Shown piece by piece: positions 4,052 through 57,640 of a DNA stretch of 64,000 nt. The notes below the pieces were generated by a model. The model ran no database searches. It saw only the letters and a list, made by a program, of their open reading frames with translations, and had not been told where the DNA came from. The DNA is from Candidatus Uhrbacteria bacterium (GTDB lineage: Bacteria; Patescibacteriota; Patescibacteriia; UBA9934; GWF2-40-263): positions 6,978 to 70,977 of the forward strand of contig JAERTI010000056.1 in assembly GCA_016844925.1 (NCBI GenBank), written 5' to 3'. How positions within the stretch are numbered: position 1 is the first letter of the stretch; each line of letters starts with the position of its first letter. The translations under genes were made by a program, and so were the position numbers.

Positions 4052-4303
4052 TTAGAGTGCGCCTTCTTCGGAGAGGCGTTTTGTTTTGGTTGTTGTTCCA
4101 CGGTTGTAGCCGCCTGGTGTTCCGTCGGATCGGACGACTCGGTGACAGGGGATATCTGGGTCGTAGTTTTTGTTTAAGATGTTTCCGACGGCGCGGTAGG
4201 CCTTGGGTCGACCTGCTGCTTCAGCCACTTCTTTGTAGGTCATGGTTTGGCCTTTTGGAATGTTTCGCACGATCTCGTAGATTACGTCAGAGAAACTGGT
4301 CAT
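4052..4303 (-). CDS. ogt: methylated-DNA-[protein]-cysteine S-methyltransferase (MGMT/Ogt DNA-binding and active-site domain)
   Basis: PCHRVV active-site motif; about 83 aa with the MGMT fold sequence. The start ATG overlaps the stop of the upstream glycosylase gene (ATGA). Confidence 0.8.
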   Translation of the reverse strand: MTSFSDVIYEIVRNIPKGQTMTYKEVAEAAGRPKAYRAVGNILNKNYDPDIPCHRVVRSDGTPGGYNRGTTTKTKRLSEEGAL

Positions 4304-5190
4304 AGGGGCAGGGTTAGGCGCGTCTTTGTTTTTTGGAGAAGGTTGTCTTGGCACAAGCGCTTGATCATATATTCGACCCAAGCTTGATCATGTGTTTTAT
4401 CGAACGTCTTGTCGATGAGTGGTCCTATATTCGAGAGGCTTACTTCGTCCTGTTCACGAACAAGCTTAAGTATCCGACCGCGATAGATGCGGTCTGGGTA
4501 GCGTTTATCCCGATGATGACGTTCTTTGCTCTTAGGGGTCGACCGTTTCGGAATACGCACGCGTCCAGAGAGGAACCGCTCTGCTACGGGACAGTCTCGA
4601 CGTAGTGGACACCGCATACATTCTGGCTTCTTTGTGCAGATCATGGTGGCGAGGTCGAAGATTGCCTGTGGGACTTCATAGAAATGACCCCGGTGGGGGA
4701 GGAATGACTCGGCTTCTTTTGCAATACGGTCGTCGTCTTTGAGATCGCTGTAGGGCTTGGCAAGTAGAATGCGCCCGAGAACACGGCGAATGTTTGTATC
4801 GATGGGCATGGTGCGCTTCTTTTGTGCAAACGCACTGACAGCTGCTGCTGTATAAGGTCCAATGCCTTTGATAGATTTCCACTCAGTTTCAGTTTTTGGG
4901 ACGCCATTTTTTGTGACATGGCGAGCCATGTCACGCAGGGCAAGTGCGCGACGATTATAACCAAGGCCTGCCCAGGCACGGATTACTTCTGCATTAGATG
5001 CTGCAGCGAGCTTCTTCCAGGTGGGGAATTGTTTCAGCCAGGACCGGTAATACTTCTTTACACGATCGACTTGTGTCTGCTGCAGCATGATCTCGCTTAC
5101 CAGGATGCGGTAGGGGTTGCGTGTGCGTCGCCATGGTAGGTCTCGGCCGTGACGGCGATACCAGCGCAAGAGTTTTACGGCTCGTGTCAT
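4300..5190 (-). CDS. mutY: HhH-GPD DNA glycosylase with a 4Fe-4S cluster (MutY/Nth family, A/G-specific adenine glycosylase-like; lacks the C-terminal NUDIX-like domain)
   Basis: LPWRRTRNPYRILVSEIMLQQTQV N-terminus, a GIGPYTA helix-hairpin-helix, and the C-x6-C-x2-C-x5-C ligands CTKKPECMRCPLRRDCP. Confidence 0.8.
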   Translation of the reverse strand: MTRAVKLLRWYRRHGRDLPWRRTRNPYRILVSEIMLQQTQVDRVKKYYRSWLKQFPTWKKLAAASNAEVIRAWAGLGYNRRALALRDMARHVTKNGVPKTETEWKSIKGIGPYTAAAVSAFAQKKRTMPIDTNIRRVLGRILLAKPYSDLKDDDRIAKEAESFLPHRGHFYEVPQAIFDLATMICTKKPECMRCPLRRDCPVAERFLSGRVRIPKRSTPKSKERHHRDKRYPDRIYRGRILKLVREQDEVSLSNIGPLIDKTFDKTHDQAWVEYMIKRLCQDNLLQKTKTRLTLPL

Positions 5191-54141: not shown

Positions 54142-55203
54142 TTACCGCATTGTGCGGAGGTTTCCACCCCAATGGTGGGTGTAGATGACCCAGGCCATGT
54201 CCTCGAGCCAGCTGAGCTGGGTGAGGCGGCCCTGATCACGGAGCACTTCCAGCGGCCCGCCCTGGGGCAGGGGGATTGTGTCCGTGACGATGATCTTGGT
54301 GACGGGGCAGTCATCTGCAGTGAACCGCTCAGCGGCCTTCCCACAGCAGACAGCATGTGTTGCTGCGGCCCAGACGTCATCTGCTCCGTAGCCTCGCAGG
54401 ACCTGACCGAAGTCCATCATCGAGCCGGCCGTAGCGATCTCGTCATCGATCATGGCGACCACTCGACCTTCGACGTCCTCACGTCTTCCGACGATGTCGA
54501 CGATCTTGGTCTTCTTCGCGCTGACTCGTCGCTTCAAGGCGATGATGTCCGGGAAGGTGAGACCGAGCTCCTTCTCGATGGCCTCGCGTGCCGGGTCGTA
54601 ACGCTTGCGAGCGCTGTCGTCCGGGAAGGCGAGGCAGAGCTTCGTGGGGTCCACAGCCATGTCGATCACCTTCTTGAGGAGTCGACGCGTCAGGTAGACG
54701 GGTGTGACGAGGCCAGGCCGGCCCGCCATAGCGATCTGCTCGCTGTGCGGATCTGCGCAGACCCAGCGGTACAGACCCTTGGGTCCGCATGCCGCCTTGG
54801 CCAGCTGCACCAGCATCGGTGGCATGGTGAGCTCCTTGTCACCTTCATCCTTGTCTGAGCGACAGAGGGGGAAGTAGCCGGTGATGACTAGGACCCGAGC
54901 TGCCTTGCGACCACTCATGTACGAGAGGGTCCAGAGCAGGTCCATGACCATCTTGTCCGTGCCGGGGCCCGAACCGATGACCACGCAGTCATGCTCACCG
55001 ATGTGCTTGCTTTCGAGCTGCACGAAGGTCTCGCCGCTGGGGCGCAGGTTGAAGCTCGGAGTGGCGACGTCGACGGGCGTGACACGCTCGCCTTCTCGTG
55101 CTCCTCGTTCTTCGATGTGCCTTGCTACACGCGCGGCAGCAGCCTCGAAGCCGGGGAGAGGGACCAGGGTCAGTCCGCCGTGTTTGTTGAAAGGAGCGTT
55201 CAC
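54142..55203 (-). CDS. ribose-phosphate pyrophosphokinase (PRPP synthetase) family protein; high GC
   Basis: 353 aa with a PRPP-binding-type loop VVAMIDDEIATAGSM, an N-terminal PRS-like domain, and HDCVVIGSG. Confidence 0.6.
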   Translation of the reverse strand: MNAPFNKHGGLTLVPLPGFEAAAARVARHIEERGAREGERVTPVDVATPSFNLRPSGETFVQLESKHIGEHDCVVIGSGPGTDKMVMDLLWTLSYMSGRKAARVLVITGYFPLCRSDKDEGDKELTMPPMLVQLAKAACGPKGLYRWVCADPHSEQIAMAGRPGLVTPVYLTRRLLKKVIDMAVDPTKLCLAFPDDSARKRYDPAREAIEKELGLTFPDIIALKRRVSAKKTKIVDIVGRREDVEGRVVAMIDDEIATAGSMMDFGQVLRGYGADDVWAAATHAVCCGKAAERFTADDCPVTKIIVTDTIPLPQGGPLEVLRDQGRLTQLSWLEDMAWVIYTHHWGGNLRTMR

Positions 55204-55277: not shown

Positions 55278-55646
55278 TTATCGTTCTGATCTTGGGTCCC
55301 AGGTGTCTCTAGGCTGCTTCTTTTGATGCGCGTACGCATCATTAATGCTCATTTGTCTCCGCACGTCCTCGAGATCTTTGAGGTCCTGTACGTGTTGCGC
55401 AAGTTTCTCTCGGCGCGCTTTTACGCGAGGGTGCTTACCCGCTTCACCGAGAAGGCGCCCAAAGAGTTTGTTTCGATACTTCCCAGGACGCACCCCCATG
55501 ACATTCAGCGCCTTGCCCGCCGCACCTTTTCCATCTGGATCACGATCGAGGTCTGTGTTGTCGAGTGTGTAGTTAAACTGTTCGACGATCTTATTCCACG
55601 TCTCCTGCTCAATGCGCCGACGTTGTTCGTAAGGAAGGTACCCCAT
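55278..55646 (-). CDS. hypothetical basic protein
   Basis: 122-aa ORF overlapping the metK 3' end by 38 nt. No motif. Could be spurious. Confidence 0.3.
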   Translation of the reverse strand: MGYLPYEQRRRIEQETWNKIVEQFNYTLDNTDLDRDPDGKGAAGKALNVMGVRPGKYRNKLFGRLLGEAGKHPRVKARREKLAQHVQDLKDLEDVRRQMSINDAYAHQKKQPRDTWDPRSER

Positions 55647-56718
55647 AGGCGTCTATTGTATCAGGCTCGTCGATCCGTTCCCAGGGCGCGCTCGCGTGGG
55701 TGAAGTGTCCGCTGGTGCAGTTGGCTTGGTAGATCGGTGTGCGCAGGTCCAGCGTGGCGATGATGGCTTTGGGGCGGAAGTCGAAGTTTTCAAGGAGATG
55801 GTCAAGCGTCCGTCCGTCGCCATCGATGGCGTGCACCATCAGAGGCTCTGCCATGCCGATCGCGTAGGCAACGGAAACGAGACATTCATCAGCAGCGCCG
55901 GAAGCGACAAGTTGCTTTGCGACGTAGCGCGCCATGTAGGCACCTGAGCGGTCTACCTTCGATGGATCTTTTCCAGAGAACGCTCCGCCACCATGGGGAA
56001 TCACACCGCCATAGGTGTCGACCATGATCTTGCGACCGGTGAGTCCTGCATCTGCCTCAAACCCGCCAACAACAAAGCTCCCGGAGGGATTGATGATGAG
56101 ATTGGTTGGGGGAGCGAGTCGGTAGTGGGAGAGGACGGGAATGACGACGTGCGTGACCAACTCAGCGCGAATCTGTTCTTGCGCCACATCTTCATTGTGT
56201 TGAACACTCAAGAGAATGGTTTCAATCAGTCCGTCACGAACGGTTACCTGACTCTTTCCATCAGGACGCAGCCAGGCAAGGGTCTTGTCGCCTCGCACTT
56301 GATCGAGTCGACGTGTCAGAGCATGTGCCACGGCTGTAGCGATCGGGAGGAGTTCTGGTGTTTGGTTGCAAGCATAGCCGTACATGATTCCTTGATCGCC
56401 GGCACCACCATCATCTACTCCTGCAGCGATTTCGGGTGATTGCTGCACGACGTATTCCAGGATGTTGAGTGGGTCCGTGTGGCCGATATCGCGATACACA
56501 CGCTCAGCGATGGCCCGGTGGTTTACTTGTGCTGTTGAAGTAATCTCTCCACCAATGACGAGGGTGCCATGGGAACCAAACGTTTCGACGGCGACACGCG
56601 CAGATGGATCTTGGGCAAGGTGAGCGTCGAGTATCGCATCGGAAATCTGATCACAGACTTTGTCTGGGTGACCGGCGGTAACAGACTCACAAGTATAAAG
56701 AGAAGGGAGGTGACTCAT
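55609..56718 (-). CDS. metK: S-adenosylmethionine synthetase
   Basis: GHPDKVCDQISDA, the GGGAFSGKDPSKVDRS P-loop, and DTYGG. Confidence 0.9.
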   Translation of the reverse strand: MSHLPSLYTCESVTAGHPDKVCDQISDAILDAHLAQDPSARVAVETFGSHGTLVIGGEITSTAQVNHRAIAERVYRDIGHTDPLNILEYVVQQSPEIAAGVDDGGAGDQGIMYGYACNQTPELLPIATAVAHALTRRLDQVRGDKTLAWLRPDGKSQVTVRDGLIETILLSVQHNEDVAQEQIRAELVTHVVIPVLSHYRLAPPTNLIINPSGSFVVGGFEADAGLTGRKIMVDTYGGVIPHGGGAFSGKDPSKVDRSGAYMARYVAKQLVASGAADECLVSVAYAIGMAEPLMVHAIDGDGRTLDHLLENFDFRPKAIIATLDLRTPIYQANCTSGHFTHASAPWERIDEPDTIDAYGVPSLRTTSAH

Positions 56719-56724
56719 AAGGGT

Positions 56725-56910
56725 AAAAATAAAACGACATCTCGCAGGAGATGTTCATAAAGAATTATCTGTCCCACGTAGGGCCACGTAAAACTCTTCG
56801 AGTCACGTGGCGGGGCTGGAAGGCGCACCGTCTTCTTTCGAAAGGTTGCGGGTGGGTCAATGAGCCAGAACTCTCACCACACTCTTGATATTGAATTGTA
56901 GAGAAAGACT
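56725..56910 (-). promoter_or_regulatory. candidate SAM-I-like riboswitch leader of metK with an intrinsic terminator
   Basis: On the minus strand: AUAUCAAGAG (plus 56882-56891), GCAACC (plus 56844-56849), GGUGC (plus 56825-56829) and UUCCAGC (plus 56815-56821). A terminator ACAUCUC-cugc-GAGAUGU plus U-run (plus 56725-56754) ends about 10 nt before the ATG. The P1 pairing could not be reconstructed. Confidence 0.4.
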
Positions 56911-56928
56911 AGCACGGATTTACGTTTG

Positions 56929-56957
56929 TTGACAGTGCGCCGGCTCTCAACTACGCT
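56929..56957 (+). promoter_or_regulatory. sigma-70-like promoter for the downstream high-GC ORF
   Basis: TTGACA at 56929-56934, a 17-nt spacer, TACGCT at 56952-56957, and a GGAGGT RBS at 56975-56980 before the ATG at 56984. Confidence 0.45.
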
Positions 56958-56983
56958 CGTCACCTGGCCAAACTGGAGGTGCC

Positions 56984-57640
56984 ATGCATGTAGAACAGGA
57001 AAAGCTCTCTCGTTTCGACGAGGGATTGCACGAGCTCAGTCCGCTGATGCGACTGGTGCTGACAGATGCGGATCGGATTCTGGCTGCCGTCTGCGATGCG
57101 CCCAAGGACCTCCGTCTGCGTACGCAGATGGCAGATCACGACCGACAGGCCGACGAGCAGGCCATCGCGTTCGCGCTCCGGCAGCTCGGGCTCCACGCTG
57201 AGCATCACGGCATGACGTCGTTCAGCTTCACCAGCCCCATGGGGGAGGTGGGAGGATGGCTGTCGCACGTTCCCGAGTCCGTTCGTCGCATGCAGGCCCG
57301 CGTGTGGATGAGGGGCCTGCTCACCAGGTCCCTGAGAGGCCTGCTGGAGGAGAAGTACCACACTCTCACGCACGGCAAGCTGGGCCTGGGAGATCGTCGG
57401 CGTGTGCACGGTGTAATCCTCACCACACTCCAGGGGGTAGAGCTTCCGTGGTATGGGGGAGGAGATCTCATCTTGAGCTTGCTCAGGGCCATCCTGCCGC
57501 ACTACATTGTTCTGGCAGTGCTGAACGACCAGGATCGAGTCGCAGAGTTGCGACCGCTCATGCATCTGCTGCCCACCCTCCCGGTGCTGGGCCTGATGCA
57601 AGGCAAGGAGGGTCCTATCTGGATCTACGGCGTGCACTAG
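56984..57640 (+). CDS. hypothetical protein; high GC
   Basis: Promoter and RBS on this strand. No motif. The antisense 227-aa ORF is a shadow. Confidence 0.45.
   Translation: MHVEQEKLSRFDEGLHELSPLMRLVLTDADRILAAVCDAPKDLRLRTQMADHDRQADEQAIAFALRQLGLHAEHHGMTSFSFTSPMGEVGGWLSHVPESVRRMQARVWMRGLLTRSLRGLLEEKYHTLTHGKLGLGDRRRVHGVILTTLQGVELPWYGGGDLILSLLRAILPHYIVLAVLNDQDRVAELRPLMHLLPTLPVLGLMQGKEGPIWIYGVH

Follow-up and report, generated by a model that had tools for sequence, protein, structure and literature searches.

The leader of metK in the 64-kb stretch of DNA analysed here (hereafter the window) raises the question of whether it carries an ordinary SAM-I (S-box) riboswitch or a variant class with an expression platform of its own. 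The regulated gene is well defined: its product matches the methionine adenosyltransferase model TIGR01034 with 427.6 bits against a cut-off of 309.4, and its sole in-frame start is the ATG at 56718, residue 1 being also the start of the alignment in relatives. The next ORF upstream (56984..57640) runs divergently on the plus strand. A first-pass annotation had noticed SAM-I strings in the right order in the leader, and this holds: on the minus strand, AUAUCAAGAG (56891..56882) is followed by GCAACC (56849..56844), GGUGC (56829..56825) and UUCCAGC (56821..56815). It had also pointed to a set of repeats, and further to a P1 helix that could not be recovered and an unusual spacing of terminator and start codon, two features from which a variant class might be suspected.

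The Rfam SAM-I model (RF00162) matched the leader at 56894..56762 with 45.9 bits (gathering score 44.4, E=2.6e-7 over the whole 64-kb window), the alignment taking in all model positions 1-108. The margin over the gathering threshold was only 1.5 bits. In the clan-resolved Rfam scan, neither SAM-IV (RF00634) nor SAM-I/IV (RF01725) was matched and SAM-I was the best and only assignment; similarly, with permissive filters and E up to 10, RF00162 alone was reported for the region 56600..57050 and no other Rfam family was found there. The low score is explained by three outer consensus P1 pairs that are non-standard in the RF00162 alignment of the window, by a J3/4 that reads CCU against the consensus AAu and by an insertion of 37 nt in the P4 loop.

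We then compared the leader with those of related metK genes. The closest MetK relatives in genome and metagenome collections are 55-62% identical and come from Patescibacteria/CPR assemblies labelled Saccharibacteria, Kaiserbacteria, Moraniibacteria, Parcubacteria and others. Scans of genome contigs and metagenome contigs yielded no MetK above 62% identity, and the exact protein was found on only one public contig (Logan SRR13374099_4396). RF00162 reached at least its gathering score directly 5′ to metK in 16 of the 20 closest loci, with 45.5-69.8 bits. A lineage model trained with the window included (R1) gave 51 matches, one in the window and the others in 50 of 67 related loci that were searched. 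Since the training set of R1 held the window, a leave-one-out covariance model (R2) was built from 25 relatives only. R2 scored the window at 82.4 bits (E about 8e-19), its sole match in the 64 kb, and in its alignment a 36-nt P4-loop insertion was the only large departure. With both models the motifs thus lie far beyond chance, which speaks strongly against chance matches in the leader.

Minimum-free-energy (MFE) folding of the aptamer segment alone led to a four-way junction with helices P1 to P4 (Table 1). The P1 helix was recovered both by the covariance-model alignment and by plain MFE folding, contrary to the earlier impression: UAUC (56890..56887) pairs with GAUA (56769..56766), and an outer A56892-U56764 pair follows across an A.A mismatch. 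Allowing a one-base bulge would yield 6 bp. In an alignment of 17 sequences P1 is a core of 4-5 bp, and the outermost of the five modelled pairs is non-standard in 5 of the 17, window included. The ligand-pocket core is intact, with J1/2 AAGAG, the bulged A in GCA-A-CC, GGUGC and AGAUA at upper-case consensus positions; the J3/4 position at which the window departs from the consensus is variable among relatives as well. At the K-turn positions of P2, GA dinucleotides are aligned on both sides (UGA 5′, AUUGAC 3′), an agreement at the level of sequence only. A K-turn between P2 and P2a/P2b is a feature of SAM-I (PMC2258182).

The aptamer structure is conserved in the clade. In the R1 alignment, 94.8% of helix cells are paired, compared with 80.2% after shuffling and 36-50% with slid partners, and compensatory (double) changes occur in 16 of 24 helix pairs; those of P2 and P2b covary. 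Pairing of the pseudoknot between the P2 loop and J3/4 is found in 92.6% of cells (8-52% in slid controls), and all 4 of its pairs show compensatory changes, as in CUAG/CUAG, UUGG/CCAA and AUGG/CCAU.

Table 1. Positions of metK and of the elements of its leader in the window
Feature	Position	Strand	Basis or remark
metK (methionine adenosyltransferase, 369 aa), regulated gene	55609..56718	(-)	TIGR01034
Terminator U-run CGUUUUAUUUUU, also the AU-rich stretch without SD before the start codon	56725..56736	(-)	sequence, terminator scan
Intrinsic terminator ACAUCUC-CUGC-GAGAUGU	56737..56754	(-)	terminator scan; -8.0 kcal/mol
Antiterminator 3′ strand AUCU-CCUGCG	56743..56752	(-)	terminator 5′ arm, loop and first G of 3′ arm
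Antiterminator 5′ strand CGUGGG-AC-AGAU	56767..56778	(-)	overlaps P4 3′ base, J4/1 and P1 3′ strand
SAM-I (S-box) aptamer, full length	56762..56894	(-)	RF00162
P1 3′ strand GAUAAUU	56763..56769	(-)	covariance alignment and MFE
P4	56773..56815	(-)	base CCC 56815..56813 with GGG 56775..56773
Pseudoknot 3′ strand CCAG, J3/4	56816..56819	(-)	complementary to 56868..56865
P3 CGCA-A-CCUUUC GAAA GAAG-AC-GGUGCG, with bulged A and GGUGC core	56824..56850	(-)	Rfam alignment, MFE, covariation
P2 with K-turn-type internal loop (UGA / AUUGAC), P2b (GAG/CUC) and loop	56851..56882	(-)	Rfam alignment
Pseudoknot 5′ strand CUGG, P2 loop	56865..56868	(-)	complementary to 56819..56816
P1 5′ strand AAUAUC	56887..56892	(-)	covariance alignment and MFE
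TACAAU leader motif, window copy of clade (T)ACAAY	56895..56900	(-)	predicted +1 = A56899
Putative extended -10 TGC-TAGTCT	56906..56914	(-)	position only

The one true peculiarity of the window aptamer is its long P4 arm. Three copies of a CCACGU/ACGUGG element had been taken as possible alternative terminator and antiterminator pairings. The copies are indeed present on the minus strand (CCACGU at 56810..56805, copy 1; ACGUGG at 56789..56784, copy 2, and at 56779..56774, copy 3), but they lie inside P4 and do not make up a separate module; copy 3 alone joins the antiterminator. Copies 1 and 2 are the strands of a 12-bp hairpin that extends P4 (56811..56783, GCCACGUGACUC-GAA-GAGUU-UU-ACGUGGC). 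Part of copy 3 is held in a 7-nt internal loop on the 3′ side of P4, and its GGG closes the helix. This arrangement is common to the RF00162 alignment, which puts the insertion in the P4 loop, and to the MFE and suboptimal folds. Pairing of copy 1 with copy 2 amounts to -19.9 kcal/mol, against -10.1 with copy 3. A copy 1:copy 3 helix, considered as an alternative P4 or as a switch, was hence rejected as unrealistic at a cost of 9.8 kcal/mol.

At 38 nt, counted inside the CC/GG pair, the P4 insert of the window exceeds those of all other members of the clade (51 in all); inserts of 30, 20, 20, 17 and 16 nt come next, and lengths of 4-7 nt are commonest. Elsewhere in the clade, P2 is expanded by as much as 91 nt and P3 by as much as 46 nt. 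The length of the peripheral arms is free to vary in the clade, and the window stands at the end of a continuous P4 range. Covariation support for the long arm itself is absent, because no MetK relative is closer than 62% identity. It contains a direct repeat of UACGUGG, present twice and 10 nt apart within 56774-56790 on the minus strand (UACGUGGCCC / UACGUGGGAC), which suggests that the arm arose by local duplication. Also, a sigma-70-like TTTACG-17-GATAAT is found inside the aptamer (56792..56764, minus strand), between P4 and the P1 3′ strand. We set it aside as a promoter, GATAAT probably reflecting no more than the conserved GAUAAU of the P1 3′ strand; if active, it would produce a transcript starting just 5′ of the terminator.

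Downstream of the aptamer, the clean intrinsic terminator with its U-run that had been proposed for the leader is present (Table 1), and the terminator scan returned one site for 0.4 expected. Its distance to the start codon was first given as about 10 nt; in fact, 6 nt separate the AUG from the last U (56725) and 18 nt separate it from the stem. Sequence from the 3′ portion of the aptamer can pair with the terminator 5′ arm and loop in a duplex of 10 bp with a 2-nt bulge, worth -6.8 kcal/mol alone. We compared the two states with nearest-neighbour folding energies, which ignore tertiary contacts, pseudoknot, ligand and kinetics. For a transcript ending at 56743, before the terminator 3′ arm, the antiterminator fold reached -41.2 kcal/mol and the closed aptamer -37.7 kcal/mol; the unconstrained MFE at this decision point was a third structure, using P2 sequence, at -42.5 kcal/mol. 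For a transcript extending through the U-run, the values were -44.6 kcal/mol with the antiterminator and -46.9 kcal/mol with aptamer and terminator. In the antiterminated fold, AUAUC of the P1 5′ strand pairs with GAUGU (56741..56737) of the terminator 3′ arm, because the sequence of this arm resembles that of the P1 3′ strand. Transcriptional control with OFF logic is thus energetically plausible: the predicted energies fit two mutually exclusive states that are near-isoenergetic.

The same design recurs in relatives. A terminator was found in most related metK loci, and most of them share the order aptamer, terminator, AU-rich stretch and AUG. Pairing of the aptamer 3′ segment with the terminator 5′ arm has a median of -11.4 kcal/mol, against -5.7 for shuffled sequences, and in 27 of 38 loci it is stronger than in 95% of their own shuffles. 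The duplex of the window is modest in this respect (-9.3 versus -6.0 kcal/mol, 8.5% of shuffles being equally good).

The Rfam match, R2, the covarying helices and pseudoknot, and the terminator/antiterminator platform all back the first-pass reading of a SAM-I riboswitch with a terminator on metK. Very probably, the leader element is a canonical SAM-I (S-box, RF00162) riboswitch that attenuates metK transcription with OFF logic. We infer that it binds SAM and actually switches the gene, and on the folding model it most likely stops metK transcription when SAM is abundant. In the mechanism that we propose, transcription would probably start near 56899 and the nascent RNA would fold into the four-way-junction aptamer, whose P2 would contain a K-turn and whose P2 loop would form a pseudoknot with J3/4. 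Bound SAM would keep P1 and the P4 base closed, the terminator hairpin and U-run would form, and transcription would halt 6-18 nt 5′ of the metK AUG. When SAM is absent, CGUGGG-AC-AGAU would pair instead with the terminator 5′ arm and loop, and the freed AUAUC of the P1 5′ strand could pair with GAUGU of the terminator 3′ arm; the terminator would then be blocked and metK transcribed. Translation would begin on the AU-rich leader that lacks a Shine-Dalgarno (SD) sequence, like that of most genes here. The long P4 arm would be a peripheral, lineage-specific extension, folded in both states.

As noted at first reading, no canonical SD precedes metK: neither GGAG nor GAGG is found 5′ to the start at 56718, and a canonical SD was likewise missing from all 16 relatives' leaders inspected. 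In the window, GGAG or GAGG lies within 20 nt 5′ of the first start in 7 of 55 long ORFs, the corresponding share among random 17-nt windows being 10%. The frequency of SD motifs is that of the background, and starts without SD are the norm for this genome. The 16S anti-SD motif is reported to be missing in part of the CPR (PMC9297842). One of the exceptions to this scarcity is the divergent neighbour at 56984 (GGAGGTGCC-ATG), and many ATG codons in the window are preceded by ...ACT, ...AGT or ...CCT. The spacing that had been considered unusual was found again in relatives. The U-run is directly followed by the AUG (gap of 0 nt) in L108, L096, L023, L107 and L021; the gap is 1 nt in L086, 5 nt in L095, 6 nt in the window, L083, L101 and L089, 7 nt in L016 and 8 nt in L102. 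About a dozen relatives thus have at most 8 nt between U-run and AUG, and in others the gap extends to more than 300 nt.

These comparisons bear directly on the suggestion of a distinct SAM-binding variant class, which would possess a SAM-I-like core, no P1 and a new expression platform built on the repeats. A near-threshold Rfam score, outer P1 pairs of which three are non-standard and the insertion of 37 nt could be read in its favour, as could the longest P4 insert of the 51 clade members. However, P1 (UAUC/GAUA plus A-U) is recovered by covariance model and MFE and is equally short in relatives; agreement with SAM-I extends to every helix, to the K-turn positions and to the pseudoknot; the repeats form a plain hairpin that lengthens P4; insert lengths in P4, P2 and P3 are continuous in the clade; and R2, at 82.4 bits, finds in the P4-loop insertion the sole large departure. 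A U-run beside an AUG without SD recurs as well. The features of P1, P4, spacing and start are hence ordinary for lineage and genome, and the variant class, already largely refuted, appears extremely improbable. A decaying, non-functional S-box relic or a chance cluster of motifs would agree with the marginal Rfam score and with a reduced genome that has few regulators. It would leave unexplained the intact set of highly conserved core positions, the canonical CUGG/CCAG pseudoknot, a terminator accompanied by a complementary antiterminator and the E-value of about 8e-19 from an independent model; moreover, 50 of 67 related loci have kept the element and show compensatory changes, which indicates purifying selection. 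We consider such a relic or cluster very improbable.

More room is left for a platform that acts twice, the terminator hairpin and U-run, some 6-36 nt from the AUG, gating translation in addition to transcription. The SAM-bound hairpin would then stand in the ribosome landing zone, and in the antiterminated state the U-rich stretch would be single-stranded and available for SD-independent loading. The end of the U-run 6 nt 5′ of the AUG, the dozen or so relatives with a gap of 8 nt or less (in five of which the U-run runs straight into the AUG), the background level of SD motifs and the anti-SD motif missing in part of the CPR all speak for it. Yet the 18 nt before the AUG are unpaired in both states, so that occlusion is not obvious, and in many relatives 20-300 nt separate terminator and AUG, which means that close apposition is not required; also, the compactness may reflect genome reduction alone. 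Control of translation by the same hairpin is therefore judged unlikely. A wider proposition, that Patescibacterial S-box leaders form an architectural subtype, is more doubtful still. In that scheme, very short P1 helices, a 5′ (T)ACAAY, expandable arms and a U-run fused to a start without SD would go together, one hairpin with its U-run would control transcription as well as the loading of ribosomes without an SD, and the duplicated UACGUGG would keep the P4 arm folded while copy 3 toggles between P4 base and antiterminator.

The canonical SAM-I reading can be set against known systems. Features of the SAM-I family, its metK context and the terminator/antiterminator platform have long been known (PMC2258182). 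The window shares with S-boxes such as Bacillus subtilis yitJ and metK or Thermoanaerobacter tengcongensis metF (RF00162) the P1-P4 junction, the K-turn positions of P2, the pseudoknot of P2 loop and J3/4 and the core AUCAAGAG, GCA-A-CC, GGUGC and AGAUA. Similarly, a SAM/methionine gene is placed under a terminator/antiterminator with predicted OFF logic, the antiterminator being drawn from the aptamer 3′ strand. It differs from classical members by a short P1 (4 standard pairs and one outer pair), by CCU in place of AAu in J3/4, by the 12-bp P4 hairpin (37-38 nt insert), by a very compact platform with 43 nt from aptamer end to AUG and no SD, and by a Patescibacteria-like host in which the Rfam model gives only 45-70 bits. 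With the metK S-boxes of Patescibacteria/CPR (loci L001-L112) it forms one aptamer clade, as reflected in its R2 score, and has in common the antiterminator design and the succession of promoter-like element, ACAAY, aptamer, terminator, AU-rich stretch and AUG; it is set apart from them by its P4 arm of 38 nt against a typical 4-7 and by a MetK only 55-62% identical. The SAM-IV and SAM-I/IV riboswitches of the same clan (CL00012) have the SAM-binding core around P1, P3 and the junction in common with SAM-I, are without its K-turn and P4 arrangement and carry other peripheral pseudoknots. In contrast to both, the window has GA dinucleotides at the K-turn positions, a pseudoknot of the SAM-I type and a P4 placed as in SAM-I.

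We also looked for a promoter 5′ to the aptamer. TGC-TAGTCT, 5 nt and TACAAU follow each other in the window, and by their position they suggest a promoter with a predicted transcription start (TSS) at A56899. The -35 position, TGTCAA (56934..56929), is a poor match, and a simple sigma-70 scan did not call a promoter at 56906..56914. Among Patescibacteria metK S-box loci, ACAA[CT] occurs within 19 nt 5′ of P1 in 30 of 45, against a control frequency of 3.3%, and is often extended to ACAAYU[GA]AAUAUC. Of these 30 motif-bearing relatives, 24 have TAnnnT just 5′ of ACAAY at -10 distance, about 25 nt before the P1 core, and several of them show by eye a TGn and a TTGCA-like -35 before it. The ACAAY of the window is closer to P1 than that of any relative. 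T-A-C of TACAAU fits the YRY ‘start element’ described at bacterial TSSs (PMC12641261), which would account for the first three bases only. We rejected TACAAT (56900..56895) as a -10 element, given that the TSS would fall inside P1 and that most relatives have TACAAC. TAnnnT-N4-7-YACAA was also discarded as a genome-wide promoter signature, with 10 matches in the window for 15.5 expected.

In four relatives (L084, L009, L016 and L002) the leader CAACU[GA]AAUAUC is complementary over 11-12 bp to GAU(U)AUUU[UA]GUUG, that is, the terminator 3′ shoulder and U-run, in a helix that would enclose the whole riboswitch; the base opposite the leader U is A in L084 and U in L009. As a general long-range helix (‘P0’) this pairing was rejected: of 33 loci, these 4 alone exceed their shuffles, and the window lacks the helix, with -0.9 kcal/mol compared with -2.1 for shuffled sequences.

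Around the start codon, a 23-codon upstream ORF (56687-56758, minus strand; AUG 56758, AUGAACAUCUCC...UUGUGA) spans the terminator and extends across the metK start in another frame; it is without SD and is probably due to chance. At the other end of metK, a 122-aa ORF without family match (55646..55278) overlaps the 3′ end of the gene by 38 nt (55609-55646, minus strand). Next comes a divergent ribose-phosphate diphosphokinase-like gene (54142..55203), whose score of 104 bits falls short of the curated cut-off (113 bits). The three genes may constitute one operon under the riboswitch.

The leader can hence be annotated as a SAM-I riboswitch with a transcription terminator, and for a variant class the outcome is mainly a clean negative. 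Predicted S-box feedback by SAM on metK is widespread in Patescibacteria/CPR, whose reduced genomes have few known regulators, and the open literature that we searched holds almost nothing specific on native riboswitches of Patescibacteria. At about 175 nt from promoter to AUG, such leaders are compact natural parts for inducible-expression tools, which are said in the field to be wanting for Patescibacteria (PMC11665869). RF00162 operates at the edge of its sensitivity in Patescibacteria, the clade scoring only 45-70 bits: at least 2 loci with about 80 bits in the clade model fall under the gathering score, namely the S-boxes of L005 (82.5 bits) and L009 (79.0 bits). In L005, a Candidatus Kaiserbacteria assembly, a glmS ribozyme (RF00234, 52.6 bits versus 37) lies directly 3′ of metK at 4189-4382 on the plus strand. 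Finally, two tandem matches of the clade S-box model, with 42.6 and 25.1 bits, precede a single metK in L095 (2187-2298 and 2377-2464, plus strand) and may represent a tandem or partly duplicated aptamer.
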